From the NCBI GenBank assembly GCA_964385615.1, contig CAYLPP010000004.1, forward strand, positions 108,743 to 172,742: a stretch of DNA of 64,000 nucleotides. Reading direction: 5' to 3'. Positions 9,571 through 48,279 of the stretch are shown here, piece after piece. The notes beneath the pieces are model-generated. The model made no database searches. It had not been told where the DNA came from and was given only the letters and a program-made list of their open reading frames with translations. Position numbers and translations under genes: made by a program. The stretch comes from an uncultured bacterium. GTDB taxonomy: Bacteria > Omnitrophota > Omnitrophia > Omnitrophales > Aquincolibacteriaceae. Positions within the stretch are counted from its first letter, which is position 1. Every line of letters starts with the position of its first letter.

Positions 9571-9609
9571 TACTTTTTTCATAAAGCAAGACCAGAAAGT
9601 GGAGGTTTT

Positions 9610-18253: not shown

Positions 18254-18259
18254 TTACTT

Positions 18260-30927: not shown

Positions 30928-31304
30928 CTGCGCCTGAAGCCAAAGGTGCCAGGGAAGATACGGCTTTTGAAATTCGTTTCTACGAAGGCATCTTGACCCG
31001 GTCGCCCGATTTTGTGGACGCTCTTTTCCCTTTGGCTGAGCTTTATACCCGCACGGGTCTTTACGAAAAAGGCCTTGAAACTGACCAGAAACTCGCCAAG
31101 CTTTGCCCCCGGGATTCCGGCGTTTTTTATAATCTTGCCTGCAGTTTAGCTTTGACCGGCAGTAAAAATTCCGCCCTGGAGACTCTTGAGAAAGCCGTGG
31201 ATTTGGGCTATTGCGACGGCGATCACATGAAGAATGATCCTGATTTAAAATCTCTGCACGGGGAAGATGCTTTTCAGGCCCTTCTTAAAAGACTTCGGGC
31301 ATGA
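30924..31304 (+). CDS. TPR-repeat protein
   Basis: 126 aa with 34-residue helical-repeat periodicity (..LAELYTRTGLYEKGLE.., ..YNLACSLALTG..). Confidence 0.55.
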   Translation: MTAPEAKGAREDTAFEIRFYEGILTRSPDFVDALFPLAELYTRTGLYEKGLETDQKLAKLCPRDSGVFYNLACSLALTGSKNSALETLEKAVDLGYCDGDHMKNDPDLKSLHGEDAFQALLKRLRA

Positions 31305-32541: not shown

Positions 32542-35500
32542 ATGAAAAGTTATAAAAAACCTAGAGCCTTACGGCTGACTGCGCTTGCGGTTCTACTCTG
32601 CTTTCTTACCTCGCAGGGCGGGCCGGAGGCACGCGCTTTTTCGGCTCCTGAAGGCCCCTCGATCCCTCAAAAATTTGTCCATCTCGAGGAGTCCTTTCAA
32701 GGGACTTCCGGCAAAACTCTTCTATTCATTCAGGATGCCCATGAGTCTCTGGAAGCTCAGGAGAATATCGCGAAAGCGATTCAGTATTTCGTGGGGAGCC
32801 AAGGGGTCAAGACGGTGTATGAAGAGGGGTATGAAGGTGAAGTGCCGACGGATTCCTATTTCGCGTTTATCCATGATCCCAAAATCCGCCGGAGAGTCTC
32901 CTATTTCTTTTTGGATAAGCTTCGTATCGGCGGAGCGGAATTCGCCCATATCAACCGGGAAAAAGATTTTAAACTGATCGGGGCCGACAGCATCAAACTG
33001 CATCTTGAAAATATCGCGCAGTACCAGAAAGCTTCGGCCCGGCAAAAGGAAGTCGCTGAAGATCTGCGCGCGGTTTTAACCGAATTTGAAAAACTGGGTA
33101 ATTCTCATTACTCTGAAAAAATTAAAATCTGGCTGAAACTTCGCGGAAGATTTGATTCGAACCGGCTTCCGCTTCCTGACTACCTCAAAAGAACCGCGGG
33201 CCTTCTGGCGGATACCCGCGCTTACCCGCTTATCTCCCTTTTAATCTCGCCGGGCATTAATCAGGACCGGGAAAAGCTTAAAAAGCTTGAAGCCATGGAC
33301 CCCCGTCAGCTTTTTTCTGAAATTGACCGGATGGAAAATGATTTAGCCCAAAAGGAACTTAAGGGGAAAGAAGAACTGAAAATTTTTCAGTATCAAAAAG
33401 AGATCATGCTCCTGGTGCGGTTGAACAATCTTGAGGTCAGCGCTCCGGAATATGAAACGGCGCAAGCTGTTCTGGAAAAACTTCAGACGCGGGAGCTTGC
33501 GGAATTTATTGCCCGTGAAAGTAAGAGGACTCAGGTTCTATCCCGGGAATGGGAAGAGGAAATCCGGCACGCGCTGGATTTCTATAAAATCGCTAATGCG
33601 CGTGATCGTGAAATTGAAAGGGGAATTGAAGGGTTTCTTAAAAATCCGGATGAAAACACCGCGGTTCTGGTTTTTGGCGGATTTCATAAGAACGCGGTGA
33701 AGTCTTTTCTCAGGAGCAGGAATATTTCTTATCAAATTCTCAGCCCAATTATCAGCGGGGAAGACGCGGTTCACAGGGCTTACTACCGTGAGCTGATGTC
33801 TGAGGGATTTTACGATTTTGAAAAAATCGCTGCCCCCAGCCGGGCCGCAAGACCGCAAACTCTCATGACTTTACCGCAGGCGCGCAGTGAAATCCGGGGT
33901 GTTTACCGGACCGCGCTGGATAAACCGGATCTTGAATATCCTCTTTTTGAAAAAGAAGCCGTCCGCGCCTTCAACTCCCCGGCGGCCCGTTCCGAACTCC
34001 GTAAAATGTTCGCCGTGGAAGATGAAGTTGTCAGAGTCGAGATTGCCCAAACTTCCGGCAAGTATGTTCTGAGCGCTTACAACCTGCGTAAACAGGAAAC
34101 AGAGCCGCGTGTTCGGGTGGAGCTGATTGAGCCTTTATCCGGTGAAGAAGAACCTGCCAGGCTTGTGTTGGGAGATATTGTTGAGTCGCATATCCGCGCG
34201 GATGAGTTTTTAAGAAGGGCTCTTTATGTTTTACTGAAAAAATCCAGCGTGCAAATGGTGGGGTACCTTCCGAAAACCGGATCGGCGGAAGAGATGGACA
34301 AAATTTTCACATGGCTCGAAAAACAACCTGGGATATCGCTGTTAAAAGGAAACTCCGCCACGGTCAAGTACGATGCTGCGGAAGTTCTTATGCCCGGGTA
34401 TTTTATCGGGGAATGGAACCGTATCCGCAGTTCGAAAGATTACGGCGAACAGGTTTCGGATTTTCTGGACAGCCTGCTTTTATTTTATTCCAGCGAAACG
34501 GATAAAAAGCATCTTCATGATTTTCTGCTTTTTCTTCTTCGAGATCCGGATTTTATAATCAGACGCCAGGCCGTCGAATTAATGCTTAGGTACGTAAGAA
34601 TTCCTGTCGACCAGATTTTTCTCCACCTTGAAAATCCTGATTCAGGGCCTTTCAGGGATGACCAGGTTTCTCTCCCGAATCCTCTAAGCTCGGAATTGGC
34701 AACCGCGAATAAACGGCTGGCTCTCCTGGTTTTTCTTTCTCAAATTTCACAAGCCGTAAAAGCTCAGCGCTGGGCTGTAGACGCGTATTATGGGGCTGTC
34801 CTCAGACAGAGGTTTGCCAGTGAACTTGAAACTTCAGCCGGAGACCCTGTTTTTGATATCGCGAATGAAAGCGCGCTGATGGAGTCCATACAGAATGAAC
34901 CTAAAGCCGGCTTGGGGCATGCTGGAAAGATGAGTGCGCTGGAAGTTCTGGTCAGGGAATATTTCCGCTATTTGTACGTGACGGAGGTCCGGAAACAGGC
35001 GGATCCTTTTAAATGGCTCCATGATGATTTGTATGCCATGGTTCCTCAACTGAAGATCCCCAAGACTGAAGCGCTCATTATTCGAATGACTTCGAAGTTC
35101 CGCTCCGAACTCAGGACCGAAAATCCATGGGATGGCCGTGTCCGTGAAGTCCGCCTCAATGCGGACCGTTCCGCGGCTTCCGTGGTATTTGAAGACGGGA
35201 AAACGGTTGAGCTGACAGAAAAATTCGAAGAGGGCGCTTACCATGAATTTTTCGCTTATCATGAAAATGGGCGTAGGCTTCTGCTAAAGGTCATGAAGCC
35301 CGGTTTAGACGGGGACCGGTATGACAAGGGCGTAAAGTCACTGGAAAATGAAGCCCGAATATCTGATATTTTGAGACGCGTCAAGCATATGCAGAACGTA
35401 ACCAATGTTATCTGGCTTGGAACGATCCCCGGTTCCGGCGACGCGCTTTTAATTTCCGGACCCGAAGCTCAAAGCCTAAAAGATTGGCGTGAACGTCTTA

Positions 35501-38500
35501 CGCTTCAGGAACGGGGCGGTGTTTTTCGCCAGTACGTGGAGCAGATTTTTCAGGCCTATTCCGGCCCGGAACGCGAGAGTGTCTCGATCCACGATTTGAA
35601 ACCGGCGAATGGACTGCTCAAAGTCACCCGAAATCCCGACGGCAGTCTCCGCTATACGGTGCATGTGATTGATTTGGAAGCCGGAAAAATGACGGAAGAC
35701 ATTCCTTTCCGTGATATCTGGCGCGGCACCTATCCCTACCTGCCTAACGCGGAGCTGATCGCAATGCTGATGACGGAGCTTGGCCGTCACAAAACTTTGG
35801 GGTTGGTTGGTTTTATGGAATTGCTGATTTTCTTTCAGGATTTTGTTCTGGATGATGACGCTATGAACGGGGGAACCGCGAATGTCGAGAAATTTTTGCG
35901 GCGCAAAGACAAAGCGGTTTTCGAGAATATCGTTAAAAAAATCAGTGATTACGAAAAGTACCGGAAAATCTGGTATTACGAGGAGCATCCCGGCGATCCG
36001 GTTGACCTAAACGCGCTTTTCGCGGATTTGATTGAAAGCTTGCGGGTCATTGAGGGGTTTAAGGTTCGAAAAGTTCTATTTGTGGAGAGCTGGTGGAATT
36101 GGTTCGCGGGTTTCATCTCAATGATCTTTCGTAAACTCCTGGCTCTTTTGCCCAAGAGAACCCGCGCGCTGCCTTTCGAATTTAATGATGCGGAGTCGAC
36201 GCGATTGCCGGCAGCGCCTCCGGCGGATGACGGGATTTCGTCCGAAGCGCCTACCCCCAGACCTGAAACCGCGGGAACGGATACGCTTTCTCAGTTCCGC
36301 CGTTTAATGTTTCTTCTGGAAGCCTTGGGCCCTCAGTTCTCAGAAAGAGATTTCGTCCGAAAGGGAAACCGGACGGTGCGTGAGTTAAGTTCTCTTTACC
36401 TGATCGAAAAAGCGGCGGAATCCAACGACGCTCTTGATGTTTCCATTTACGAACAAGCGGAAAATGATGTCCGGCGCGTTTACGGCTGGCTAAAACGGCC
36501 TGTCGATTCTTACGCTGAAGATACGATCCGTTATATCCGTGAAAAATTTATAACCCCGCGTTCCGAGCTCCGGACGGCCGCGCGGGTGGAGGATAACGGT
36601 GTTAAACTTCGTGAAATTCTAGGACGGCTTATCCGCACGCGCACTTCCGGGGAGGTTGTTATTTTGCCTGGAATCTCCCAGCATCCTGCCGTGATTGATA
36701 AAGACACACTCGAAAAAGATAAAAAAGCCCTGACAGATCTGATTCGTTTGTATCTCAAGCAGGCGATCAGCCTGGGTCCGCCTTCTTCCTATTATCTTCC
36801 TTGGGATATTTTTCCCTTTGAGCGGAACTCCATTGAACTTGAAACCTTAGTGTCTCTCGGCCGTTATCTGGGATTTTGGAAAACGGAGCCTGATCCCGGA
36901 AGCAAATTTCCTTCAGCTGCTATTCTGCGCACTTACCGCACGCGAATTCCTCTAATTGGAGATTTTAATCTGCATGGCGACAGTGTTAAAGAAGGCAGGC
37001 TGGCTGAATTGAACGATCTTGAGCGTCTGGAGATTCTTCACCGTGTTTTTGCTGAAGTGAAGACGGAAATGGAAACGGAAATGCTCCCCGGATATTTTGA
37101 TATGAGCGGGCCTTTGCGTTTCGATTCTTTCAGGGAGATTCCCGGCATTGACGATCTGGAAGATTTTGAAAGGAGAGGCGTTTTGGGGAAAGGTAAAGAA
37201 GCGGCGGTTTTTTCCGCGGGGACGGGCACTCTTCCCGCGCTTCTGGCGGCTTTCACCCGAAGCGGGAAGATTACCGTTTATGAGAAGAATAGTTATTTTT
37301 TGGCAAAGGCCCGCAAGGCGGTAGAGCGGCTGCATCATCTGGGAGTTCTCGATGAAGGGCGCTTTACCTGGGTCAAAGAAGATTGGAGAAATCAAAAAGA
37401 TGATTGGAAAAAATTTGATTTCATCCTTTTACCGCCGGCCGGACAGAGTGAAAGTCCGGCTTCCGAAAAAGAAATTCAGGAATCGGTATCCGCTCAAGCC
37501 GTTGTTTATAAATTCGCCCGATCTGAAGTCAGATCCGTGAGGGCTTTGATTCAGCAAGCGGACCATCTTGAGAGGACCGGCGCTTTAATTCCGGAAGTTT
37601 CATCGCAGTTTGTGAATCGGCATATGGGGCCTTACCGCACCGCGCTCCAATTATTGACTAACCGGATTTTGGCGGAAGATCTTAGTGATGATGCTTTTCT
37701 TGAGCTTTGGACGGAATACCTTAAGGCTCTGAAAACCGCGGATTTGCCTCTCCTCGTGCAAGTTCCGATTCATATCGTTGCCGTGATGCGGATGCATGGC
37801 GCTCAAATGGCGAGCTGGGCGCGTGTCTGGTTTTCAAAACCCAGAAAGGATTGGCGCCGGATCGTTCATGTTTTGTCCGCTGAAGCAGGAGATGAAACGC
37901 TCATGGGAACCTTGCTTCGGCGGGAGATTCTGCCGTTCATGGATTCTTATATGAACGCCCGTAAAAGAGAATGGATGGATGAGAAGACGCCTGAAGACCG
38001 CGCTGCAAGATGGAAATATCATTGGACCCAGGCGGGTGAGAATCCGGGCGTGGAAGCGGTAGAAAAAGCGGGCTCTGATTATCTGGAGGAATTTATTCAA
38101 GGATTGCCGGTTTCTTTCCGCCAGACGGATCCGGGCAAAGACTGGCCTTCGCAGAGTCAGAGTCTTTTGGAAATGCTGAGTCCCGCGGGCGACGGGCTTT
38201 TAAGTCTGATTATTGAAGCTGAGGAAAAGAGCGGATTAGACGCCTCTCAGTTGATTGTGCAGTTTGATGAAAGATTAAATTTCCTTCCGGCGTTCGTGCA
38301 CAAGCTTTTTATGAATGATTTGCTGAAAAAATACAAAGTCTATCTTTTAAAGATTTGGCTGCGTAATCTCCAGGAACAGGCGGGATTTGAATATCAGGCA
38401 GGAGATTATTTCGGGCAAGTGAAAATCACCATAGAAGCCAAGGCAAATGAAGGTGCCGGTTTAAAAGCATATTTTTCGGGAGCTCCGGATTGGAAATTTG

Positions 38501-41500
38501 AGCCGGATGGACGGACTTTAAAATTTCCCGAACTTTCGGGAGTGGAAGATTCGGAAAATCGCCCGGGGATGTTCAAGGCTCCCGGCGTTTTTTGGCAGAT
38601 TTTAGGAGATTTTCAGCTGAAGTTTCTGGAAAAAGACGGGCGCAGAATACTGGTTCCGATCGCTTATCTGGAAGAAGTTCAATCTTCCACAGGTTATAGG
38701 GATATTCGAAATAGAACGGAGCATCTTAAAAGCGCGCGTAAACTGAACCGGGGCCGGACTCTGGCTGTGGACGCTGTCGCGCGCGCGGCCGCGAAAATGG
38801 GGGTTCTTGTTATGGCCCGCGGTCCGGAAACCGCGTCTCTTTTTATCTATAACCGCCGGACACTCGCGCAGATTGATCCGGGAAGCCGGACGGAAATCGA
38901 AATGCACTATGTCTCGCCTTTTTCCAACACGCAGCACTGGAAAAAAGTGGAAGCGCCTTCTTACGCGGGTACGGATTATTATCTGTTCGAAGGCAACCGC
39001 GAGGTTTTAAAACGTCACGGCTGGCCGGAAGACACGATTCAGCAGCTTCTCCGCTCAGAAGTCCGGAGAGATCCCCGCGAAAATATCCGCATGGACTTAA
39101 CTGAAAACTGGCGCCGGTTTCTAAATGGCGAGGCCGCGGATCCTGAAATCGCAGATCAGGTGGAGCGGGCTTTAAAATCGAAACTGGATCATTATCTTTT
39201 GATAACCGCGCTGATACGGCTTCACGTTTCCCAGGCGGTTACGGAAGAACAAATATTTTCGGGGCTCGAAAGGCTGATGGAGTCCGTGAGTACCGAAGGC
39301 AAAGAATATCTTTCCATTCTCGGGATCATTCTGAGTCAGCGGAATTTCGCGGAAGGTTTTGCGGGTTTGAATCCGGAGAGCGGCGCTTTTTATTTCGACT
39401 TGATCGGCATGACGCAGACGGGTGATGTGCTCCCTGAAGTCCGGCCTTTGAATCAGCGCAATGAAGCCGTGGGCGCGCTCTTGAATTTGGATGCTCCGGA
39501 TAAAAAAACGCTCATGGATGGTGTCAGGGACGTCACGGGTGAGAAAGCTTTAACCCCGGAAGATTTAAATCCGCTTACGGATATTGTCCGGATTCAGGCC
39601 GGAGACACTCAGGATGTCTACATGATTTCGGCGCTCCTTAAAGACGGACGCCGGGTTCCTTTTATTTTAATGGCAGCCAGGGGCCGGACCGCGCTTCGTG
39701 CCGTGAGAAGGGAGTTTGAAAATTTTGAACCTTACCGGGATGATGAAAGAGCGGTTCATGTTATTGGCTGGAGTCAAACCGGCAATGAGGCAGGCTACAC
39801 GAGCCGATTTTCCAATACTGAGGAAATTATCTATGTTTCCATGAGCGAACCGGCTCTTCATGGAGAGACACCCGGGAATTTTACCAAAAATTCCGACCTT
39901 CCGCTTCGTGTCGGTGAAATTAGAGGAGCAGAAAGCCTGCGCAAAATTACAGCCGCGTTCGCGTCCGCGATTGTTTATTTTTACAAGGCTGATTTAAAAA
40001 GAAGCGTCCAGTTTATTGTTAGTTCCGCCGGGGATCTTAATTTTTACGATTCCGACTTTCAGCCGATCGCGGAACAGCCGGGGAAATACGAAGTGAAGCC
40101 CGAAGTTGAGAAGCTCCGCACACGGCTGATTGCTTTTCGAGGCTACAATGATGAGGTTGATCCCGCGCATTTGATCGCGGAGCTTTTCGATTTTACTTAT
40201 TTTACTCCCGACAGTTCTGATCTTATGACCGGTCCTGTTCATGATGACGCGATGATCCAGGGTGTTCTTGATGGTCTGGTTCAGGGACTGGAGGATAAAC
40301 TGAAAGACCCGGTTCTCGCGCGTAAGACCGCCATGGAATGGCTTCAAGCCTATCTGAACGCGTTTAGTGATTATGAGAATCCCGTTTTCGGCCCGCCCAT
40401 CAATGTTATCCCTGAAGTCCGCGGGCGGATTGCCCGTCTCCGCCGCGAAGTTAAGCAGGCGGAAAAGCGCTCAGAGCTGAGGGTAAACCCGAAGTCTGAA
40501 GGTCTGGATTTGAATGGTTACGCGTGGCTGAAAGAATTACCCGTGGCGCACTTCAAGGAGCTGAAGGATTTTTTGGAGATGCTTTTCGGCCTGGATCAAA
40601 GCGGGAAACTTTTGGAATTGGAGAAGAGAGAGAGAATTCTCGAGCAGTCAGCGTATTTTTTGCGTTTATTCCAAGACCGCGTTAAATATCCCCGGGGGTT
40701 TGATGAGATTCCCCCGGGTATATTTGCCCATTCCGCCGGAATGTTTTTTATCAGCAATTTATCGTATCTGGGTATTTACAGACAATTGGAATCAGAAGGC
40801 GTGCTTCAGCCGGGTGCGGTTAAAAACCTGATAGAGCTGGGGCCCAGCTTTTGGAATTATTCCTCCGTTCTCCAAAAAGCTTATCCCAACCTTCAGCATG
40901 CTCTGGGGGTGGACAATGATCCCGCCAAAACGGCAGGTTTTCAGCAAGGTGCTGTACAGCTTTTAGGTGTTGACCCTGCCGTTTTTCAGTATGAGATCGC
41001 GGACTTTAAATCGCTTGATCAAAATCAAAAAATCCGGCAGTGGATGGATCAAAACGGAAAATCCGACGTTCTATTTCTTCAAAACCCAGAGCCTCAGAGC
41101 CGTCCGGGTGTTTTCTTTACAGTGCCCGAATACCGCGATTTTTTAGCGCGTGCCGGAAGCCTGCTTGATGAAAAAGGCAAGATGATCGTGGTCATTGATG
41201 AAGACCGTCTCGATCATGACGGAAATCCCGAACTTTTATCCGTCATTCGAGGGCTTGTTTATCAAACTTTAACCGGATTCCGAATTCCTCAGCAGGCTGG
41301 ATTTTTAGGAATGCCGGAACTTCGGAAGGTGAAAATTCTGGCGATTCCTCAGCCGGAACTTGTCCGCTTGGCTCAGCGCTCCGAAATGCGCGCGCTCAAT
41401 TTTACGCCGGTTTACGCGGTGGAGGAGCGGATTGAACTGATTGAAGAAATCCGCAAGCAAAGCGCGCTCAACTCAGAGCCCCCGTTTGTGATTCTTGAAG

Positions 41501-44500
41501 GCGGAAAAGGTTCCGGCAAGTCCACTCTGGCCCGGCAAATCGCGGGCTCTTTATCTCAAAAAGAACCCGGGCGTGAAGGGGTTGTGATTGAAGCGGATTG
41601 GTTTCACCGGGTTCCTTCAGGGCTGACGGCTCAGCTTCGGCGCCTCGCGGGGCTTTTCTTTTGGATGATACTGAGATGGGTCCGGATTTTATCCGAAGAG
41701 GCATTCAATCAGAAAATTTTCGAAGCTTACTTTGATCAGGAAGCTTTACAGAGGTTTCTTCACGATCTCGGCAGCGCGCGGACTTCATCTGAACCTGTTC
41801 CGGTTAAAATCAGGGACCATATTAAAAAAGAAGACGTTTCTGTTTTAATAGGCCGGCGCACGCCCGTGGTTTTTGAGGGCATGCTTTCTACCTTTCTGCT
41901 GAAGGGCTGGTCCGGTATCCGGGTTCATGTGATGACGCCTGGAGCCCGGGCCCGCGAGCGTTATAAGGCCAGGGAGAAACAAAAGGGGAAGGGGAATTTC
42001 CGGATTTTCATGGAGTCCCATGATTTTCTGGCTGGGTGGTTCAACCGTCACGGCCGCAAGGTGCAATTTGATTACGGCTACGTGACAACCGCCAATTTCC
42101 TTAAAGACTCCGCGTGGACGATGATTCAGCTTTCAGGCGGAAAGGGAACCCGAATGGGCCCGGGAGTTCCAAAACCTTTGCGTCAGCTCAAGGGGAAGCC
42201 TCTTTTTGAATACTCTCTGGATACAGCCAAAAGAAACGGGCTTCCTGTCATCGCGGTCGGCTCTTCAAACCAGGATTTGAGAAAAGCCCTGAAACCGCGC
42301 GTTCAGGGATATGTGGAAGAAGAGAGTTCGGTTGAGTCCGCGTTCTTTTCACCTTTGAGTAAATATGGATTCCTGAAAGGGAATTTAGTTTTTATCGGCG
42401 GGGATACGGTGATCACCGATCCCTCCATCCTGCGATCATTGATGCTCGCCCATGAAAAAAAATCACTCATTCCGGCGCTGATGACCTTTTCAACGGTTCG
42501 CGTATCCAACCCGCAAGGCCTGGACCGGGTTGTCCGCGATTCCAAAGGCCGCTACGTGACTTTTATCAAACAGGAAGAAATCGAGTGGCTTAGATCTTCA
42601 GGGCAGACGTTGAAGCTTGGCGATGGAACGGAACTCAAAACTTCTGAGCTTGACGCGATTAATGAAGTCTGGCCCGCGGTGATCGCGATGAGTGCGTTCG
42701 CGTACAGGATTCTGGGTTTTCTCCTTAAATTTAAAGATGCTTTTACGGTGCCGAAGTTCGTGAAAAAGAAAACGATTTCCGTGGATAAAATTCTCAATCG
42801 CGGAGCCCGGCGCCGGTTTCTGATGGCGCTTGGCGCGGTCCGGATTCATCAAATAGAGCAAAAAGACGCCATCCTCAATATTAATACGCCCCAACAGCTT
42901 GAGGAAGCTGAGAGAACTTTAACGGCCCGTTCCGAACTGAGAACCAGCCAGGCGGCGGAATTGGTCCGGGACCTTCAGCGCTGGAAGCTGGGGTTTCACT
43001 CGGAAGGGTTCGCGCTGGAAATTTACGCCCGCGAAATTCTTCTTTTGAAGGAACTTGGAATTTTAAATGAATCGTCTTCGGTTTTCAGTTTTTTGACCGG
43101 CGCGGATTTTCTTCCCGGGTTATTTGCGGGGAAATTTTACTCAACCGAGAAACGGTTTAACGCGGAGCAGATGGGACGTATCTGGAGTTTGACGGCCAAG
43201 AGGGATGCGTTTAAAAGTAATTTGCCGGTCAGCGACGCGGAAATGGAAGCGCTGAAGGCTAAAACGGAACATGAACAGGCGGATGTTCTTAACCCTGAAT
43301 TTATTAAGCGGTGGACGGGGAAAATGAAAGCCGGCGACACGGTTTATCTGCGTTTTGTTCCTGAGCATCTCTCGGACGGGGTTGGACGGAGGGATGTCCG
43401 AAAAATTGAAACCTGGCTGGATCAGCTGATCACCTTGGCGCCTGACGGCGTGCATTTTGTGATTTTTGATTTTAACGAGTCTTCACTTCCCGGCGGTACC
43501 GCCGGATACCTTCAGAGCCGTTATGCCGGCATTCTTACTGACGAAATAAAGTTCCGGCTGGGCAAAGAAGAATATCTCGAATGGCAGAAAATCAATGAAT
43601 GGGAAATACTCGGGCGTCATCTTAAGCGGGTTTCTCTTTCTCTGGACGGACAGCTGATGGATCTTGCTCAAGGCGGACGATTGACGGTTCTAACCAAGCC
43701 TCCGGCGAGGTCGGAGAGCAGGAATTTGCCGGACGCTCAGCCTCCCGTGGAAATTTCGTTTGAAAAAATAGACGGATTCATGCAGGAGATTCGAAGCCTG
43801 ATGGCCCGCAAACCCTGGAATCTTTACAATATTTCAGAGAAGGAAGAATACGTTGCGGACGCGGCGAAGGCTTATCTGGAAAAGATTCAGGGAATTCTTG
43901 AATCGGTTTCCGCCGAAGTCAAAACCTCGAAAGACGCTGTCCGGCTCCGTCTGCTTGAAACCGCGGCGGAGGATTTTGATTATTTCCTGAATGTTTTAAT
44001 TCTTCTCGAAAACCGCGAGCTTAAAGAAGTCAGCTGGAACCGTCTGGAAAAAGGCCAGGGGATTCATCATTACTTTAAATTTGATTACAAAAGCAGAACT
44101 TATTCCGTGGAGGTTTTTGCCCGCTGGTCACGGGGGCAGGGTCCCGAGGCCCGTTTTGAAATCAATTTCCCTCAGCAGGATAGGGAGAGTTTTCGTCTAG
44201 ATCTAAGTTCTTATCTTGGAAATTCAAGAGCCTCTTTTGATATGCCGACGTCGGTGCGGAAACTGGTGCCCGATCATACGGAGCTCTTTCATCATAATAT
44301 TCCTGATCTTTCCTATCAGGAAAATTTTCAGAACTACGTGATTGGGCTTGACCAGAAAATTTCACGTTCGGAATTGCGGGGGTCTCTGCCGCTGATTGAG
44401 ACTTCCGCTAAAAAGCCGCGCCGTGATCCGGAGCTTGTGGAGAAAATGAAGCTGAGGATTACGGTTGTGGGGGCAACGGCGGAAGACATCGCTAAAGGAC

Positions 44501-47500
44501 AACAGTCGTTGGACTCGATTTTTGAAAAAGAAAAGAACCGGAATCTTTCGGTTTACGAACAGGATCTTTTTGATTTTTACGTAAACGGGGAAGGCCGGGA
44601 CGTGCCTTTGGAATACCGCCCAGGGATGCATGGGGGAACAGGCTATTTCGGAAATGATAATGATAAAGGCCGGCCTTACGTCTGGTTCAGCGACGGCCGG
44701 ATGATCAGTAGCCGGTTCCGGGATCCCCGTTCTCCATTTGAAATATTTAAACATGAAGCTTCCCACACGATGGACGCCATCATGGAAAGAAAAGGCGATT
44801 CTAATCTGAAGGGGTATGCCGGTTTTCAGGGCCAGACCAATTCGGGAGTCGATATCTTTTATGTTCCTCAGCATCGGCTGGTTTACCAGGAATTTCGCGC
44901 CAACCTCTGGACTTACGACGGGAATCCCGGCCTGGCGCTCAAAGCTACTTTGCAATCCTATCCGGAACTGCGCACTCTCTTTAATGGAATCGCGGATGTT
45001 GAGAAAAAACCAGCTCCTGTTTTGTACACAGCCTTGAAATGGATGAGCCGTGACATGAATGACCAGCTTTATCCGGATTCAGTTTCCGATATCGGGCAAT
45101 TTGATCAGATTTACATTCACTGGTACCTCGAATTCGCTTCCGGACGGGTTAAAAAACTCAAACGCTCTGAGCTGCGTATGGAAGATATCAACACTATGAA
45201 CGCTTCAGAACTATTTCAGAAACTTCGGGACTCGAGGCTCGGCGACCTGGAAGAGCGGGCGGAGCTTCACCGGCAGTGGTCGGAAGTTCCCGCGGAAAAG
45301 CGCAGGCGGGGCGTGGGAATGATTGTTCTGAGGAAAATCGGCGGGGAATGGAAGGTTCTCTTTGGCCGGCAGAATCACGGCCGTTACAACGGTAAATATG
45401 TAGCTCCTTCCGGCGGAGTTGATAAACCTTTTGATCCGGTTTATGAAAATGCCGCTGAAACCGAAATCCTTCTTAAAAGCGGCATTGTGCAGGATTTTGA
45501 CGGCGCGCGCGGCGGAAAAGAATCCGCCCAGGCCGCGGTTCTGCGGGAACTCAAAGAAGAAACAGGGATCGAGGGGCGGATTGCGGCCCGGCTTGCGGAC
45601 CGCTTTGCCGCCGACGACGGTCTTTTTATGACCTATTTTATTCATGTGGATTCCGGCGAAGATGAAACCGTCCCGGAGCGTGATGGGGAAATCGAACCTC
45701 TGATATGGGTTCCGCTCAGCGTGATTCTGAAATCTGAATCCGGCCAGGCCGGGCAGACTGTTGAACGGGAATTTAATATCGAGTTTGTGCCGGGTCTTAA
45801 ACGGCGTGTTTTGAATATTCTGAAAGACCGGATTCAGTCGCTTCCTCGCTCCGAATTGCGCAATTCTCAGGAGCCTTACGAAAAGCGTCAGGGCCCCACG
45901 GATTTCGAATGGGTCACGCTGAATACCGCCCGTTTTTACGATCATTTGCGTCTGTTGTGGAGTTTGACGCCTAATGTCGCGAAAATCAGGCAGGAATCCA
46001 TGGCGTTCAGCGACGAAGAAAGAGAATCCTTTTTTGATTGGATTGTCCTTCCTTCACCCGCGATGCCGCCGGCGGAATCGCTTCGAAAAATTCTGCATTT
46101 AATCGTAGAGCAGCGGATTCTAGCCAGTCAAAGTAAAAACAGCGATGCTATTTTAAACGCGAATGACTGGGCCGATGTGCTGGCTTACCGCTGGAAAGTT
46201 CCGCCTCAGGTTTTGCAGGCGTTGTTTTTATGGATGGCGCGTTCTTCAATACGCCCGTCGGAAGTTTCGTCTCAGACGCTGATCGATTTTATGAATGCTT
46301 TCATCAGCAGTTACACTGAGGGAAGGCCAAAAGCTTATCAATGGACGCATTTTGGGCCCGCGATTCCCGCCGGTGAATCGGCTGAAGCTAAGCTGAATCG
46401 CGTGACTGCCAGTATTAACACGGCCAAGGCGCTGTTCGGTGAAGATTTTGTGCGGGGGAAAACGCGTTTTATTTCCCGTATCGGCGATTCGCCTTACTAC
46501 ATCGGATTCGGTTTCGGATTCGCGTCTGAGGATCCGTTCCGTCCCACGCTGATTCTAGGTGAGTGGAAAGACGGACAGAAAAATGTTTTTGAACGGGTTT
46601 TCTTTAAAATGAGTTTTGATATTGCCGATACCGGCCGTTTGCAGATTGTCACACTCAAAGGGATCAAGGGCAAAGAAACGGTTATTACCGATTTTCGTTC
46701 CGCGATGGGCGGCTCTCTGGGGCCCGGCCGCGCGCTTTTGACTGCTGCCGCAGTTTTCGCCCGCAAATATAGTTACCGCGAAGTTCTTGGATTAAAAGGG
46801 GAGCATCATACGACCGCTCCGGACGGAAAGCCTTTGAATTACAGCGCGATTTATAAAGGATTCGGTCTCCGTAAAAATTCCAAGGAGGGCCCCTGGCAGT
46901 CGACGGACGTTCTTTTTGAGCGGTTCTCCAGAATCCGGGCAGCGGGTGACGCCAACGCGCAATCGCTTACCCGTTTTCTCGAGGTTTCAGAAAAAATACT
47001 GCCGGCGATCCCTGCCCGCTCCGAACTGCGTACTGAGGAGGAGGATTTTTCCAAAAGCCTCCGGCACATTGAGCTTAAAAAATCCATGACAGACGTAGAA
47101 ATCAAGAAAGTCAGCGACGGATATCCGGGCAAAACACCGATGAGGGGGAAAACGCCGGTGACTAATAACCGTCTGTTGACGAAGATTTTGGACCGGCAAA
47201 AGGGCGAACCCCGTTTTCCTTCGTTGCTGGCCGGGAAACATGTTCTTTTAATCGGGCCGTCGCCGGAAGGCGATGATCTGGAGGCGCTGATCAGACGTTA
47301 TCCTGGGATCGGTAATATTTATCTCGTGGACGCAGACGAAAGAGTTTTTATCGGCAATGACCGCAAACTGCAGGATATGCAGGCCTCAGGAATTGCTTTA
47401 CCCAAAGTGGAAGGTTACAAAATTAACGCGCTTGAATTACCCGGGGAGTGGACGGAGCAAGTCGATGTCGCTATTCACGCGATGGTCATTGACCAGTTCT

Positions 47501-48279
47501 TTTTCAATCCGGCGCAGATCGGGCAGTTTGCCAATGAGATGGTCCGTGTGCTCAAACCCGGCGGCGCTGAGCTTTCCGTCGTCTTTGCCGACGATATTCA
47601 CGCTGGAGACGGGCGAATTCAGAAAATCAATGACTCCCTGCATCTCAAGACTGCCCGCTCTGAAATTCGTCTGGCCGCGGTGCAGCCGACGCTTAACGTG
47701 CGTCAGTCGCTTAAGAATCTGAAAACGCCCGCGTTGGTTTATCTGGATTATAAAAACCTGATGGAAAAATTCTGGGATTCCGAAAAGAACACCTGGAACG
47801 AGCAGGGGATGGAAATTATCGCCATGACCGCAATGCACCCGGACAAAATCCGTCTGGTGATTTCAGGCGCGGATCTGATGGATGACCGGCTGAAAGCTTT
47901 TCGGGACTTGCGGGATTCCGGGAAGAATGTGCGGATCACGGACTTGTCCGCGGCTGAAGCCTATGAAGCTTCGCAAAAGGATTTCATTAAGGGCTGGAAA
48001 AATCATGTGAGTATTCATCTCTCCAAGGATCTGCCCGGGCTTAAGAACTCTTTTAATAAAACCCAGCAATCTGAGATTTATTTCTTCCGTTACGCTCGCC
48101 AGGACAGGCAAGGCGGCTTGCTGGCGGCGGCTCTGCTCTGGGCGCAATACGCGGAAGACGGCAAAACAATGGACGGTGTTACCCGGGATGAAGAAGGTTT
48201 CCTGACCCTGACGGAAGGGTTTATCCGCCAGATCATTCAGAAGTACGAAGCCCGTCTGGTTGTCGCTTTCTCGGCGTAA
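32542..48279 (+). CDS. Giant secreted multi-domain protein (5245 aa) carrying a series of unrelated enzyme-like modules
   Basis: Uninterrupted 15.7-kb ORF. It opens with a signal peptide (MKSYKKPRALRLTALAVLLCFLTSQGGPEARA/FS). Motif-level modules are listed as separate features below. Confidence 0.8.
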   Translation: MKSYKKPRALRLTALAVLLCFLTSQGGPEARAFSAPEGPSIPQKFVHLEESFQGTSGKTLLFIQDAHESLEAQENIAKAIQYFVGSQGVKTVYEEGYEGEVPTDSYFAFIHDPKIRRRVSYFFLDKLRIGGAEFAHINREKDFKLIGADSIKLHLENIAQYQKASARQKEVAEDLRAVLTEFEKLGNSHYSEKIKIWLKLRGRFDSNRLPLPDYLKRTAGLLADTRAYPLISLLISPGINQDREKLKKLEAMDPRQLFSEIDRMENDLAQKELKGKEELKIFQYQKEIMLLVRLNNLEVSAPEYETAQAVLEKLQTRELAEFIARESKRTQVLSREWEEEIRHALDFYKIANARDREIERGIEGFLKNPDENTAVLVFGGFHKNAVKSFLRSRNISYQILSPIISGEDAVHRAYYRELMSEGFYDFEKIAAPSRAARPQTLMTLPQARSEIRGVYRTALDKPDLEYPLFEKEAVRAFNSPAARSELRKMFAVEDEVVRVEIAQTSGKYVLSAYNLRKQETEPRVRVELIEPLSGEEEPARLVLGDIVESHIRADEFLRRALYVLLKKSSVQMVGYLPKTGSAEEMDKIFTWLEKQPGISLLKGNSATVKYDAAEVLMPGYFIGEWNRIRSSKDYGEQVSDFLDSLLLFYSSETDKKHLHDFLLFLLRDPDFIIRRQAVELMLRYVRIPVDQIFLHLENPDSGPFRDDQVSLPNPLSSELATANKRLALLVFLSQISQAVKAQRWAVDAYYGAVLRQRFASELETSAGDPVFDIANESALMESIQNEPKAGLGHAGKMSALEVLVREYFRYLYVTEVRKQADPFKWLHDDLYAMVPQLKIPKTEALIIRMTSKFRSELRTENPWDGRVREVRLNADRSAASVVFEDGKTVELTEKFEEGAYHEFFAYHENGRRLLLKVMKPGLDGDRYDKGVKSLENEARISDILRRVKHMQNVTNVIWLGTIPGSGDALLISGPEAQSLKDWRERLTLQERGGVFRQYVEQIFQAYSGPERESVSIHDLKPANGLLKVTRNPDGSLRYTVHVIDLEAGKMTEDIPFRDIWRGTYPYLPNAELIAMLMTELGRHKTLGLVGFMELLIFFQDFVLDDDAMNGGTANVEKFLRRKDKAVFENIVKKISDYEKYRKIWYYEEHPGDPVDLNALFADLIESLRVIEGFKVRKVLFVESWWNWFAGFISMIFRKLLALLPKRTRALPFEFNDAESTRLPAAPPADDGISSEAPTPRPETAGTDTLSQFRRLMFLLEALGPQFSERDFVRKGNRTVRELSSLYLIEKAAESNDALDVSIYEQAENDVRRVYGWLKRPVDSYAEDTIRYIREKFITPRSELRTAARVEDNGVKLREILGRLIRTRTSGEVVILPGISQHPAVIDKDTLEKDKKALTDLIRLYLKQAISLGPPSSYYLPWDIFPFERNSIELETLVSLGRYLGFWKTEPDPGSKFPSAAILRTYRTRIPLIGDFNLHGDSVKEGRLAELNDLERLEILHRVFAEVKTEMETEMLPGYFDMSGPLRFDSFREIPGIDDLEDFERRGVLGKGKEAAVFSAGTGTLPALLAAFTRSGKITVYEKNSYFLAKARKAVERLHHLGVLDEGRFTWVKEDWRNQKDDWKKFDFILLPPAGQSESPASEKEIQESVSAQAVVYKFARSEVRSVRALIQQADHLERTGALIPEVSSQFVNRHMGPYRTALQLLTNRILAEDLSDDAFLELWTEYLKALKTADLPLLVQVPIHIVAVMRMHGAQMASWARVWFSKPRKDWRRIVHVLSAEAGDETLMGTLLRREILPFMDSYMNARKREWMDEKTPEDRAARWKYHWTQAGENPGVEAVEKAGSDYLEEFIQGLPVSFRQTDPGKDWPSQSQSLLEMLSPAGDGLLSLIIEAEEKSGLDASQLIVQFDERLNFLPAFVHKLFMNDLLKKYKVYLLKIWLRNLQEQAGFEYQAGDYFGQVKITIEAKANEGAGLKAYFSGAPDWKFEPDGRTLKFPELSGVEDSENRPGMFKAPGVFWQILGDFQLKFLEKDGRRILVPIAYLEEVQSSTGYRDIRNRTEHLKSARKLNRGRTLAVDAVARAAAKMGVLVMARGPETASLFIYNRRTLAQIDPGSRTEIEMHYVSPFSNTQHWKKVEAPSYAGTDYYLFEGNREVLKRHGWPEDTIQQLLRSEVRRDPRENIRMDLTENWRRFLNGEAADPEIADQVERALKSKLDHYLLITALIRLHVSQAVTEEQIFSGLERLMESVSTEGKEYLSILGIILSQRNFAEGFAGLNPESGAFYFDLIGMTQTGDVLPEVRPLNQRNEAVGALLNLDAPDKKTLMDGVRDVTGEKALTPEDLNPLTDIVRIQAGDTQDVYMISALLKDGRRVPFILMAARGRTALRAVRREFENFEPYRDDERAVHVIGWSQTGNEAGYTSRFSNTEEIIYVSMSEPALHGETPGNFTKNSDLPLRVGEIRGAESLRKITAAFASAIVYFYKADLKRSVQFIVSSAGDLNFYDSDFQPIAEQPGKYEVKPEVEKLRTRLIAFRGYNDEVDPAHLIAELFDFTYFTPDSSDLMTGPVHDDAMIQGVLDGLVQGLEDKLKDPVLARKTAMEWLQAYLNAFSDYENPVFGPPINVIPEVRGRIARLRREVKQAEKRSELRVNPKSEGLDLNGYAWLKELPVAHFKELKDFLEMLFGLDQSGKLLELEKRERILEQSAYFLRLFQDRVKYPRGFDEIPPGIFAHSAGMFFISNLSYLGIYRQLESEGVLQPGAVKNLIELGPSFWNYSSVLQKAYPNLQHALGVDNDPAKTAGFQQGAVQLLGVDPAVFQYEIADFKSLDQNQKIRQWMDQNGKSDVLFLQNPEPQSRPGVFFTVPEYRDFLARAGSLLDEKGKMIVVIDEDRLDHDGNPELLSVIRGLVYQTLTGFRIPQQAGFLGMPELRKVKILAIPQPELVRLAQRSEMRALNFTPVYAVEERIELIEEIRKQSALNSEPPFVILEGGKGSGKSTLARQIAGSLSQKEPGREGVVIEADWFHRVPSGLTAQLRRLAGLFFWMILRWVRILSEEAFNQKIFEAYFDQEALQRFLHDLGSARTSSEPVPVKIRDHIKKEDVSVLIGRRTPVVFEGMLSTFLLKGWSGIRVHVMTPGARARERYKAREKQKGKGNFRIFMESHDFLAGWFNRHGRKVQFDYGYVTTANFLKDSAWTMIQLSGGKGTRMGPGVPKPLRQLKGKPLFEYSLDTAKRNGLPVIAVGSSNQDLRKALKPRVQGYVEEESSVESAFFSPLSKYGFLKGNLVFIGGDTVITDPSILRSLMLAHEKKSLIPALMTFSTVRVSNPQGLDRVVRDSKGRYVTFIKQEEIEWLRSSGQTLKLGDGTELKTSELDAINEVWPAVIAMSAFAYRILGFLLKFKDAFTVPKFVKKKTISVDKILNRGARRRFLMALGAVRIHQIEQKDAILNINTPQQLEEAERTLTARSELRTSQAAELVRDLQRWKLGFHSEGFALEIYAREILLLKELGILNESSSVFSFLTGADFLPGLFAGKFYSTEKRFNAEQMGRIWSLTAKRDAFKSNLPVSDAEMEALKAKTEHEQADVLNPEFIKRWTGKMKAGDTVYLRFVPEHLSDGVGRRDVRKIETWLDQLITLAPDGVHFVIFDFNESSLPGGTAGYLQSRYAGILTDEIKFRLGKEEYLEWQKINEWEILGRHLKRVSLSLDGQLMDLAQGGRLTVLTKPPARSESRNLPDAQPPVEISFEKIDGFMQEIRSLMARKPWNLYNISEKEEYVADAAKAYLEKIQGILESVSAEVKTSKDAVRLRLLETAAEDFDYFLNVLILLENRELKEVSWNRLEKGQGIHHYFKFDYKSRTYSVEVFARWSRGQGPEARFEINFPQQDRESFRLDLSSYLGNSRASFDMPTSVRKLVPDHTELFHHNIPDLSYQENFQNYVIGLDQKISRSELRGSLPLIETSAKKPRRDPELVEKMKLRITVVGATAEDIAKGQQSLDSIFEKEKNRNLSVYEQDLFDFYVNGEGRDVPLEYRPGMHGGTGYFGNDNDKGRPYVWFSDGRMISSRFRDPRSPFEIFKHEASHTMDAIMERKGDSNLKGYAGFQGQTNSGVDIFYVPQHRLVYQEFRANLWTYDGNPGLALKATLQSYPELRTLFNGIADVEKKPAPVLYTALKWMSRDMNDQLYPDSVSDIGQFDQIYIHWYLEFASGRVKKLKRSELRMEDINTMNASELFQKLRDSRLGDLEERAELHRQWSEVPAEKRRRGVGMIVLRKIGGEWKVLFGRQNHGRYNGKYVAPSGGVDKPFDPVYENAAETEILLKSGIVQDFDGARGGKESAQAAVLRELKEETGIEGRIAARLADRFAADDGLFMTYFIHVDSGEDETVPERDGEIEPLIWVPLSVILKSESGQAGQTVEREFNIEFVPGLKRRVLNILKDRIQSLPRSELRNSQEPYEKRQGPTDFEWVTLNTARFYDHLRLLWSLTPNVAKIRQESMAFSDEERESFFDWIVLPSPAMPPAESLRKILHLIVEQRILASQSKNSDAILNANDWADVLAYRWKVPPQVLQALFLWMARSSIRPSEVSSQTLIDFMNAFISSYTEGRPKAYQWTHFGPAIPAGESAEAKLNRVTASINTAKALFGEDFVRGKTRFISRIGDSPYYIGFGFGFASEDPFRPTLILGEWKDGQKNVFERVFFKMSFDIADTGRLQIVTLKGIKGKETVITDFRSAMGGSLGPGRALLTAAAVFARKYSYREVLGLKGEHHTTAPDGKPLNYSAIYKGFGLRKNSKEGPWQSTDVLFERFSRIRAAGDANAQSLTRFLEVSEKILPAIPARSELRTEEEDFSKSLRHIELKKSMTDVEIKKVSDGYPGKTPMRGKTPVTNNRLLTKILDRQKGEPRFPSLLAGKHVLLIGPSPEGDDLEALIRRYPGIGNIYLVDADERVFIGNDRKLQDMQASGIALPKVEGYKINALELPGEWTEQVDVAIHAMVIDQFFFNPAQIGQFANEMVRVLKPGGAELSVVFADDIHAGDGRIQKINDSLHLKTARSEIRLAAVQPTLNVRQSLKNLKTPALVYLDYKNLMEKFWDSEKNTWNEQGMEIIAMTAMHPDKIRLVISGADLMDDRLKAFRDLRDSGKNVRITDLSAAEAYEASQKDFIKGWKNHVSIHLSKDLPGLKNSFNKTQQSEIYFFRYARQDRQGGLLAAALLWAQYAEDGKTMDGVTRDEEGFLTLTEGFIRQIIQKYEARLVVAFSA
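32700..33780 (+). other. N-terminal domain of giant ORF 1, shared with giant ORF 2; possibly TraB/GumN/Tiki-like
   Basis: LFIQDAHESLEAQ ... VFGGFHKN in ORF 1 parallels LVLHVQNIHGNYEAQ ... LVTGGFHTQ in ORF 2. A first-His motif near the N-terminus and a GGFH motif about 320 aa later resemble the TraB/Tiki GxxH pair. Confidence 0.35.
35240..35800 (+). other. Protein-kinase-like / aminoglycoside-choline-kinase-like module in giant ORF 1
   Basis: Catalytic-loop-like IHDLKPANGLL (HxDxxxxN, about 35587-35613), an upstream LLLKVMKPG (candidate VAIK lysine) and a downstream DLEAG (DFG-like). Confidence 0.45.
37190..37445 (+). other. Class I SAM-methyltransferase-like module (1) in giant ORF 1
   Basis: Motif I-like AVFSAGTGTLPALLA, an acidic post-I residue in ITVYEKN, and a motif IV-like FDFILLPPAG (compare FDLIVSNPPY of HemK-type enzymes). 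Confidence 0.35.
41500..41526 (+). other. Walker A P-loop (GGKGSGKST), kinase-type NTPase module in giant ORF 1
   Basis: VILEGGKGSGKSTLARQIA followed by VVIEADWF (hydrophobic strand plus Asp, Walker B-like). It resembles small-molecule/nucleoside kinase P-loops. Confidence 0.5.
42127..42430 (+). other. Sugar-phosphate nucleotidyltransferase (NTP_transferase) module in giant ORF 1
   Basis: LSGGKGTRMGPGVPKPL matches the (L/A)GGxGTR(L/M)xPxTxxxPKPL signature of RmlA/GlmU/LicC-type nucleotidyltransferases. FIGGDTVI lies downstream. Confidence 0.6.
44752..44766 (+). other. HExxH motif (HEASH), candidate zinc-metallopeptidase-like site in giant ORF 1
   Basis: FEIFKHEASHTMDAIM sits in a region with no other recognised fold. 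The motif alone is weak evidence. Confidence 0.25.
45300..45730 (+). other. NUDIX hydrolase module in giant ORF 1
   Basis: Canonical Nudix box GGKESAQAAVLRELKEETGIEG (Gx5Ex7REUxEExGU) at about 45511-45576, preceded by a beta-rich GVGMIVLRK segment. Confidence 0.7.
47236..47600 (+). other. Class I SAM-dependent methyltransferase module (2) in giant ORF 1
   Basis: Motif I-like KHVLLIGPSPEGDDL, then VDVAIHAMVIDQF and the classic RVLKPGG motif. Confidence 0.55.

Follow-up and report, generated by a model that had tools for sequence, protein, structure and literature searches.

A strict pentapeptide at the module junctions of a giant multi-enzyme protein, a candidate bacterial polyprotein

We analyzed 64,000 nucleotides of DNA from an uncultured bacterium (GenBank assembly GCA_964385615.1, contig CAYLPP010000004.1, positions 108,743 to 172,742; this whole stretch is hereafter the window), with a focus on a giant open reading frame (ORF) that runs uninterrupted on the + strand from an ATG at 32542 to a stop codon at 48279 and encodes 5245 amino acids (aa). 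The encoded protein begins with a signal-like N-terminus, followed by a conserved domain of ~400 aa (N-domain), 13 cargo modules, and a conserved domain of ~190 aa (C-domain) that ends in [S/A]-A. Every junction is an R-[S/A]-E-[L/V/M/I/A]-R pentapeptide located in a short hydrophilic linker. The reading we favor, with confidence that is evenly balanced, is that the giant protein is a polyprotein processed at this motif, possibly by its own N-domain. The record P0001, from an NCBI contig of 215 kb, is an identical protein. A preliminary description of the DNA had proposed one contiguous giant ORF that starts with a signal-like N-terminus and strings together unrelated enzyme-like modules, all of which our analysis bears out; it overlooked the R-S-E-x-R motif at every module boundary, both bookend domains as such, the downstream paralogue, and a family of thousands of relatives. 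The main parts of the chain are as follows.

32542–48279 (+): giant ORF with stop codon, identical to P0001
32542–32637 (+): signal-peptide-like N-terminus, aa 1–32, read from sequence
32659–33831 (+): conserved N-domain, aa ~40–430, predicted fold of the TIKI/TraB/erythromycin-esterase/ChaN/RRSP superfamily
47701–48276 (+): conserved C-domain, aa ~5054–5245, predicted HAD-like Rossmannoid fold, ends -FSA

In its strict form, R-S-E-[LIVMS]-R, the pentapeptide occurs 15 times in the 5245-aa protein versus 0.05 expected from composition, and 2000 shuffles of the protein never yielded more than one copy. The rest of the 64-kb window, translated in all six frames, holds only three further strict copies, all in the next ORF. 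The 15 copies are located as follows.

33883–33897 (+): motif 1, RSEIR, aa 448, in the low-confidence tail immediately behind the N-domain
33988–34002 (+): motif 2, RSELR, aa 483
35101–35115 (+): motif 3, RSELR, aa 854
36559–36573 (+): motif 4, RSELR, aa 1340
37519–37533 (+): motif 5, RSEVR, aa 1660
39052–39066 (+): motif 6, RSEVR, aa 2171
40468–40482 (+): motif 7, RSELR, aa 2643
41377–41391 (+): motif 8, RSEMR, aa 2946
42928–42942 (+): motif 9, RSELR, aa 3463
43708–43722 (+): motif 10, RSESR, aa 3723, a variant with S at position 4
44365–44379 (+): motif 11, RSELR, aa 3942
45163–45177 (+): motif 12, RSELR, aa 4208
45847–45861 (+): motif 13, RSELR, aa 4436
47017–47031 (+): motif 14, RSELR, aa 4826
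47656–47670 (+): motif 15, RSEIR, aa 5039, in the low-confidence segment leading into the C-domain

These copies divide the chain into a head of ~447 aa, a 35-aa spacer, 13 modules of 213–517 aa, and a 207-aa tail; the median inter-motif distance, 315 aa, is an ordinary protein size. The codon combinations differ among all 15 copies, and selection therefore acts on the protein rather than on DNA or RNA. For the same reason, a nucleotide-level repeat or RNA signal behind the motif was rejected; Tandem Repeats Finder detected no DNA tandem repeats in the giant ORF. Among relatives of the giant protein, R-[SA]-E-[LIVMA]-R occurs ~1.8 times per 1000 aa, both in the set first retrieved and in 96 independent representatives. 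In the same genomes, no other ORF of at least 700 aa contains the motif except truncated pieces of family genes, namely upstream tandem members or a gene interrupted by a stretch of N. Across 726 sites, conservation is limited to the five residues, with small residues slightly preferred on both sides. The Ser at position 2 is replaced by Ala in 148 cases and by Pro in 25. Because Ala and Pro can take its place, chemistry involving the Ser hydroxyl is unlikely, as is self-cleavage via this residue.

The surroundings of the motif are consistent with flexible linkers between folded units. In both AlphaFold 2 models, which cover the N- and C-terminal bookends, the motifs lie beside well-folded domains in segments with a low predicted local distance difference test (pLDDT) score. 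Averaged over 1138 sites, hydrophobic residues become rarer and polar or small residues more common within ~20 residues of the motif. In four relatives, ~17 distinct Pfam domains enclose none of 52 motifs, versus ~8 expected by chance, and several of these domains start or end no more than 10–25 residues from a motif. An all-against-all comparison placed 38% of homology-block starts within 10 residues of a motif, versus 3.9% for random positions. Separately, 19 of 168 complete family proteins carry a motif copy in the last helix of the C-domain, 12–22 residues from the end (e.g., P0150, P0155, P0173, and P0179); the paralogue in the window is included here, with its copy at 55115–55129 (…KLRSEIRATLSFAKAA). 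Given that this placement is confined to those 19 proteins and that the offsets vary, we rejected the motif as a fixed part of the helix.

Family members without RSExR carry other strict pentapeptides with the same usage:

[GA]ARLA: P0115, P0116, P0117, and P0125, with 8, 15, 7, and 21 copies, respectively
xGFGA: P0041 and L051, with 9 and 10 copies, respectively
GxSLG: P0090, with 8 copies
RSEQR: P0078, with 4 copies

Where both protein ends are present, the first copy of the alternative motif falls shortly behind the N-domain; the last copy lies ~190 residues before the C-terminus in the GFGA, GxSLG, and RSEQR cases. The 16 genomes checked, each with several paralogues, use the RSE-type motif only, in every paralogue. 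The long members P0077, P0080, P0108–P0114, P0120, and L027 contain none of the listed pentapeptides. That a single motif is used per protein and genome and is switched between lineages points to a common reader that co-evolves with its sites. As candidate determinants within the N-domain, residues D68, E94, H136, and R139 were compared with motif type; co-variation was promising for GARLA and GxSLG and then failed.

The N-terminus of the giant protein was assigned by eye and hydropathy. Its charged start (MKSYKKPRALR), 12-residue hydrophobic core, and A-R-A at residues 30–32 give it the shape of a Sec-type signal, and the N-terminus is of this kind in 85% of 167 complete relatives. Secretion of the 5245-aa protein may be proposed from this shape only. 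The N-domain that follows was modeled confidently by AlphaFold 2 (pLDDT above 80 over aa ~40–420). Its predicted core is a parallel β-sheet flanked by helices, the fold of the TIKI/TraB/erythromycin-esterase/ChaN/RRSP superfamily, with fold matches to EreC, ChaN, HopBA1, TraB, PMT, and RRSP. Foldseek independently returned EreC and BcR135 as the top hits, weakly. The earlier proposal of a TraB/Tiki-like N-domain is supported at the level of the modeled fold; no Pfam or NCBIfam family matched at E up to 1, and the N-domain family profile matched no PDB sequence. Active members of the superfamily use a 2His/2Glu constellation, and Tiki and RRSP are site-specific endopeptidases (PMC6254334). In the aligned residues of 221 family sequences, four positions (H67, E95, R354, and H382) are invariant and two more (D65 and E133) nearly invariant. 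D65-x-H67, E95, and H382 would supply the 2His/2Glu constellation with Asp in place of Glu as the first acid, an arrangement (acid-x-His, Glu, His) that the N-domain would share with the TIKI/TraB/PrgY/GumN, erythromycin-esterase, ChaN, and RRSP proteins. The H67–E95 spacing of 28 residues equals that of H3902–E3930 in RRSP and H85–E113 in Bcr135. Besides the Asp and the missing family models, the N-domain differs from this superfamily by a family-specific helical insertion of ~180 residues and by its constant fusion to punctuated cargo.

The giant ORF closes, in frame, with the C-domain, which most family members carry at their extreme C-terminus. Its predicted fold is HAD-like. Unlike in HAD phosphatases, the nucleophilic Asp of motif I, part of the catalytic DxD of the superfamily, is not conserved, and the sole invariant column is the last residue, a C-terminal Ala; the domain is probably non-catalytic. 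Of the 221 retrieved proteins, 168 terminate in AA or SA. A jackhmmer hint that the C-domain might be a copy of part of the N-domain was dismissed as profile drift, the profile-profile probability being 0.1%.

A search with the first 5000 aa retrieved 119 other proteins of 2.7–7.8 thousand aa, whose similarity to the query is limited to the N-terminal ~450 aa. Those with names belong to Candidatus Omnitrophota or Omnitrophica, save two distant ones (Candidatus Theseobacter exili and Chlamydiae). Judged from its relatives, the giant gene is probably of Omnitrophota origin, in keeping with the preliminary guess of a candidate phylum. The N-domain profile recovered 9012 cluster representatives among 1.84 billion proteins, 5123 of them at E up to 1e-30, and in the best 150 of the 9012, the N-domain is always N-terminal. 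With one genome per species, 159 N-domain loci were found; the best 79 of these comprise 54 from Omnitrophota, 24 without a phylum name, and 1 labeled Planctomycetales. Single genomes hold at least 4–6 paralogues. From these sequence searches, the family of bookended modular proteins is apparently specific to Omnitrophota. Annotated cargo in the relatives includes kinases, methyltransferases, radical SAM (S-adenosylmethionine) enzymes, epimerases, ROK, HAD, Nudix, PEP-utilizing enzymes, SNF2, SecA-like proteins, and glutamine synthetase, among others.

Sequence comparison within the family indicates that the bookends are conserved and that the cargo is shuffled in units bounded by the motif. 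Between P0001 and P0002, its nearest relative, four motif-edged blocks are shared, in changed order: residues 447–859, 854–1346, and 2167–2655 of P0001 correspond to 2582–2995, 2133–2622, and 1649–2146 of P0002, and the C-terminal domains correspond as well. At the syntenic orthologous locus L001, the upstream genes are 60–89% identical, and the cargo after the N-domain is different. Most cargo modules of the giant ORF have no relative within the family sample, and a cargo-only search of a 5.8-billion-protein index brought just three other proteins to E 1e-6; the cargo and C-domain profile searches of this index were near-empty, to which word-index limits and the E-values of a very large database contribute. 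Short complete members consist of head and tail with 0–2 cargo modules (e.g., P0179, 805 aa). The gene directly downstream of the giant ORF is itself a family member:

48449–55159 (+): tandem paralogue, 2236 aa, divergent family member, ends -KAA

It has a signal-like N-terminus, a divergent N-domain (aa 34–533) that is 21% identical to that of the giant ORF, and cargo that includes a WD40 domain (aa ~980–1146) and a phosphoribosyltransferase (aa 1548–1653). Five R[SA]ExR motifs are found at aa 688, 1167, 1903, 1914, and 2223 (nucleotides 50510, 51947, 54155, 54188, and 55115). Upstream tandem family members are also implied at loci L024, L031, L034, and L067.

The cargo modules were examined by tiled Pfam and NCBIfam scans with the curated cut-offs as threshold.

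33988–35100 (+): cargo 1, aa 483–853, no family match; homologous to P0002 aa 2582–2995
35101–36558 (+): cargo 2, aa 854–1339, protein-kinase-like motifs only; 62% identical to P0002 aa 2133–2622
36559–37518 (+): cargo 3, aa 1340–1659, marginal methyltransferase similarity at aa 1552–1635
37519–39051 (+): cargo 4, aa 1660–2170, no family match, no relatives found
39052–40467 (+): cargo 5, aa 2171–2642, no family match; homologous modules in P0002, P0003, and P0125
40468–41376 (+): cargo 6, aa 2643–2945, no family match
41377–42927 (+): cargo 7, aa 2946–3462, P-loop NTPase/kinase-like part and MobA/GlmU-like nucleoside triphosphate (NTP)-transferase (aa ~3195–3346)
42928–43707 (+): cargo 8, aa 3463–3722, no family match
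43708–44364 (+): cargo 9, aa 3723–3941, no family match; homologous module in P0032
44365–45162 (+): cargo 10, aa 3942–4207, HEASH at aa 4071
45163–45846 (+): cargo 11, aa 4208–4435, Nudix hydrolase domain at aa 4253–4395
45847–47016 (+): cargo 12, aa 4436–4825, no family match
47017–47655 (+): cargo 13, aa 4826–5038, class-I methyltransferase-like, below curated cut-off

Two of the activities named in the preliminary description exceed the cut-offs. The Nudix domain of cargo 11 matches PF00293 (E 2e-11, 44.4 bits versus a cut-off of 21.1) and contains a canonical Nudix box at aa 4335, where GGKESAQAAVLRELKEETGIEG fits GX5EX7REUXEEXGU. The NTP-transferase of cargo 7 matches PF12804 (38.7 bits versus 27) and the GlmU N-terminal domain (NCBIfam E 2e-13; PDB 9dqf, E 1.7e-8), and LSGGKGTRMG at aa 3197 supplies the G-x-G-T-R loop. 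Other assignments stood in part. The Walker A motif at aa 2987 of cargo 7 is present, with weak profile matches (AAA_16, 6e-5; Zeta_toxin, 1e-3) that all fall below the cut-offs. The C-terminal methyltransferase (cargo 13) retains its similarity without reaching curated values (PF13649, E 4.5e-4, 21.3 bits versus 27; PF08241, 19.4 versus 21.2), and PF13649 is also among the precomputed Pfam matches of the protein. The methyltransferase proposed nearer the N-terminus (cargo 3) is reduced to a marginal resemblance below the curated cut-off (MTS, E 0.05; PADLOC mad2, E 3e-4). For the proposed kinase (cargo 2), K916, HDLKPAN at aa 1017 (H1017/D1018/N1023), and DLE at aa 1043 (D1044) occur in kinase-like order and spacing, and neither this module nor its 62%-identical counterpart in P0002 has a Pfam match at E up to 1. 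The HExxH motif of cargo 10, a candidate zincin metallopeptidase signature, is kept as HExSHxMD in the sole homologous module found (P0107), and this module likewise has no Pfam match at E up to 1. Seven modules (cargo 1, 4, 5, 6, 8, 9, and 12) have no family match at all. The tiled Pfam scans returned no HEAT repeats, and the PADLOC system-specific anti-phage models returned no match, only short generic methyltransferase, P-loop, and phosphoribosyltransferase matches being seen.

If the giant protein is a polyprotein, the pentapeptide would be an endopeptidase recognition site, and one start codon and one signal peptide would give rise to a chain cut into ~15 separate proteins. We favor this reading because a strict, short, lineage-specific consensus with unconserved flanks sits in flexible linkers between permuted, protein-sized, unrelated units. 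The protease would be the N-domain as the most economical candidate or, about equally possible, a separate protease whose specificity is genome-wide. The N-domain is the obvious candidate because it is the only universally conserved part with catalytic-type residues, because site-specific endopeptidases use its fold, and because the first motif follows ~20 residues after it. The family-wide signal-like N-terminus, together with the 63% of family members that lack internal hydrophobic segments, would imply export of the whole chain; the 5245-aa protein likewise has no strong internal hydrophobic 19-mer. In the most speculative step, the nucleotide-, sugar-, and small-molecule-modifying cargo, with its fast turnover, would form an arsenal for a host- or prey-dependent lifestyle; a predatory or parasitic lifestyle has been proposed for Omnitrophota (PMC10066038; PMC12583861). 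As a conjecture, action inside a host or prey cell would reconcile export with cytoplasmic cofactors (NTPs, SAM, NAD, pyridoxal phosphate (PLP), FAD, Fe-S, and B12). Somewhat more tentatively than for the single protein, we propose an Omnitrophota-wide cellular polyprotein system, spanning thousands of genes, in which a TIKI-family maturation peptidase forms the head, a HAD-like domain forms the cap, and freely shuffled enzymes are freed at a lineage-specific pentapeptide (RSExR, GARLA, GFGA, or GxSLG).

Several observations weigh against processing, or against the N-domain as its agent. Support for cleavage is sequence inference throughout, with no cleavage product observed, and homology-block ends are less sharply tied to the motif (14%) than the starts. 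P0121, P0107, P0118, P0113, and P0119, as well as the 2236-aa paralogue in the window, lack D68, E94, H136, and R139 yet use the RSE motif, and GFGA-type N-domains keep all conserved residues of the RSE-type ones. The two paralogues in the window have the same motif although their N-domains are only 21% identical, a pattern that a separate protease would explain as easily. Sec export of the whole chain is also hard to square with the radical-SAM/B12, PLP, FAD, and NAD cargo of the relatives, and the ATP-, NTP-, and SAM-dependent modules here pose the same problem unless they act in the cytoplasm of another cell.

Less probable than processing, in our judgment, is an uncut megaenzyme or scaffold with its domains arranged as beads on a string. 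The motif would then mark a hinge or a docking site for a bookend domain or a non-proteolytic partner, for example a factor for anchoring, chaperoning, or translocation, and the enzymes would be co-localized at the surface or membrane. The unobserved cleavage agrees with such a chain, and published work on larger Omnitrophota giants favors membrane- or surface-associated assemblies. The N- and C-domains are conserved together, exist cargo-free, and could pair to hold the chain, and a C-domain with an invariant C-terminal Ala and without conserved catalytic residues is what one would expect of a recognition module. A hinge, however, has no need for an invariant R-x-E-x-R and would not be swapped wholesale for another strict pentapeptide between lineages, and the modules are unrelated, ordinary in size, and freely permuted, with no assembly-line logic visible. 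We regard as improbable that the protein is a cytoplasmic gene fusion, in which a reduced genome would pack its own metabolic enzymes into one ORF and the N-terminus would be a tether or non-functional. The cargo is indeed of cytoplasmic, cofactor-dependent type (NTP-transferase, Nudix, methyltransferases, epimerases, radical SAM and PLP enzymes), and the gene lies in a housekeeping, co-directional chromosomal region with native GC. However, a charged start with a hydrophobic core is found family-wide, and the charge distribution predicts that the bulk of the chain is translocated. Tiki, PrgY/TraB, and ChaN proteins are typically extracytoplasmic. The cargo is also extremely divergent, mostly unique, and different between syntenic orthologues, unlike core metabolism, and the genome has stand-alone housekeeping enzymes such as IspDF.

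Membership in a characterized toxin or megasynthase class, such as MARTX/RTX, polymorphic toxins, nonribosomal peptide synthetases (NRPS), or polyketide synthases (PKS), is very unlikely despite the similar size and modular, multi-activity layout and despite an N-domain fold common to the MARTX effector RRSP and Pasteurella multocida toxin. The tiled Pfam and NCBIfam scans contained no NRPS (condensation, adenylation, or carrier), PKS (ketosynthase), RTX, or adhesin-repeat families, as the preliminary description had anticipated, and there are neither tandem repeats nor a cysteine-protease processing domain. The signal-like peptide is N-terminal rather than a type-I C-terminal secretion signal, and sequence searches of the PDB matched solved structures only for the GlmU-like nucleotidyltransferase domain. 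Least credible of all is an assembly chimera or spurious read-through ORF. The assembly is of metagenome type; however, the order of head, motif, cargo, and tail is repeated across hundreds of proteins that were assembled independently from many samples, the C-terminal signature is shared as described above, and composition is uniform along the ORF (GC 0.49–0.51, the same as in neighboring genes), with the C-domain in frame at its very end.

Giant proteins of Omnitrophota have been published as "Archaeovorins" (West-Roberts et al. 2023, bioRxiv 10.1101/2023.11.21.568195) and under the class name "multi-enzyme metabolic cluster" (Nielsen & Lui 2026, bioRxiv 10.64898/2026.06.07.730766), and the giant gene is therefore not a new kind of thing. 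It resembles them in its Omnitrophota origin, in the tiling of many unrelated enzyme families in one ORF (in the published giants, methyltransferases, Nudix, glycosyltransferases, kinases, radical SAM, and HAD), and in its signal-like N-terminus, a signal peptide at that end being common among them. The published proteins differ in size (at least 10,000 aa in Nielsen & Lui; the largest giants in West-Roberts et al.) and usually have many transmembrane helices and HEAT repeats, neither of which is found in the 5245-aa protein described here. Both cleavage after translation and an N-terminal peptidase (C39 or S8) were proposed by West-Roberts et al.; a TIKI-like head, a HAD-like tail, and a junction motif that repeats go unmentioned in the two studies. 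These three features were undescribed in the literature searched, which left most subscription journals outside its scope, such that an earlier description is possible; searches with the motif strings gave irrelevant matches only.

Two better-known systems offer partial parallels. MARTX toxins are likewise single chains, of 3500–5300 aa, with variable, shuffled, and unrelated effector enzymes, and one effector, RRSP, has the fold of the N-domain, which is a fixed head here and cargo in MARTX. MARTX effectors are freed by a same-chain protease that cuts the inter-domain linkers (in part PMC6254334). The giant protein differs in having no RTX repeats, no C80 cysteine protease domain, and a Sec-type N-terminal signal instead of type-I secretion. 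MARTX processing sites consist of Leu and a small residue, in place of which the giant protein has a charged junction motif of five residues. Viral polyproteins are similar in that one translation product is composed of protein-sized units with a short, strict consensus in flexible linkers, and this consensus varies between lineages and is uniform within one genome. Unlike these, the giant gene lies on a cellular chromosome among housekeeping genes, its cargo is shuffled and of metabolic type, and its cleavage is predicted from sequence.

Papers on giant bacterial proteins ask whether these work as an intact chain or are cleaved into parts. According to a 2024 survey of huge proteins, the difficulty is to know which motifs proteases recognize (PMC11573180), and missing cleavage information is described as an obstacle both there and by West-Roberts et al. 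The present data provide candidate cut sites at single-residue resolution, 15 here and more than 1300 in the relatives retrieved, together with a candidate protease domain with named catalytic residues and, in the pentapeptides of other lineages, a natural control. Giant bacterial proteins of this type may be polyproteins. If so, a single gene with a single targeting signal would let a small-genome, host-dependent bacterium produce a dozen enzymes and perhaps export them, and enzymes could be swapped rapidly as motif-bounded cassettes. The family would then be the first large one of chromosomally encoded bacterial polyproteins and would supply a cleavage map for Omnitrophota giants. If not, the family would still merit description, as it comprises ~9000 clusters and neither its head nor its tail has a Pfam or NCBIfam model.

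The window is an ordinary chromosomal region with all sizeable genes on the + strand. All ORFs with a family assignment are on that strand and the cumulative GC skew climbs steadily over 1–64000, in agreement with one long co-directional stretch, probably on the leading strand. The genes upstream of the giant ORF are, in order, MetH, MTHFR, several aminoacyl-tRNA synthetases, and LolCDE-like and Mla transporters; the upstream order further comprises a McsB-like kinase with ClpC, IspDF, Tmk, HolB, TatD, ThiL, and TsaE. Directly before the giant gene, at 29245–32440 (+), lie DUF6178 (E 3e-115), a small TPR protein, and a GT2 glycosyltransferase. This triad recurs upstream of family members at L001, L003, and L022 and not at the other 76 loci. 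No other neighbor recurs, and a conserved partner protease in the neighborhood was rejected, the triad being seen at only 3 of 79 loci. After the giant gene come the 2236-aa paralogue, a 471-aa secreted-looking protein, MutS, and MutL. The 471-aa protein (55324–56739, +) has a clear signal-like N-terminus and long low-complexity stretches rich in Pro, Ser, and Gly; no family matches it significantly, and the protein collection searched does not contain the exact sequence.

Other features of the window were recorded in passing. At 24552–26242 (+), a gene for an Rce1-like CAAX-type intramembrane protease adjoins a short peptidase-M50-like gene; the pair is kept at the syntenic locus L001 and is not found near other family members. 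A McsB-like ATP:guanido phosphotransferase (protein arginine kinase, 8506–9570) lies beside a ClpC-type AAA+ unfoldase (9610–12078) at 7977–12078 (+), preceded by a 178-aa ORF without a family match that could be a McsA-like partner. The kinase and unfoldase form an arginine-phosphorylation degradation module, and the motif in the giant proteins of this genome has two invariant arginines. A 390-aa ORF without a Pfam match (18260–19432, +) sits between the GluRS and CysRS genes, where GC is the lowest in the window (0.444 at 18001–20000); milder dips occur at 48–50 kb and 52–54 kb, inside the 2236-aa paralogue. The lipase-maturation-factor family (LMF1) is known mainly from eukaryotes, and at 61189–63069 (+), a DCC1-like thiol-disulfide oxidoreductase domain is combined with LMF1 and LMF1_C in one protein.

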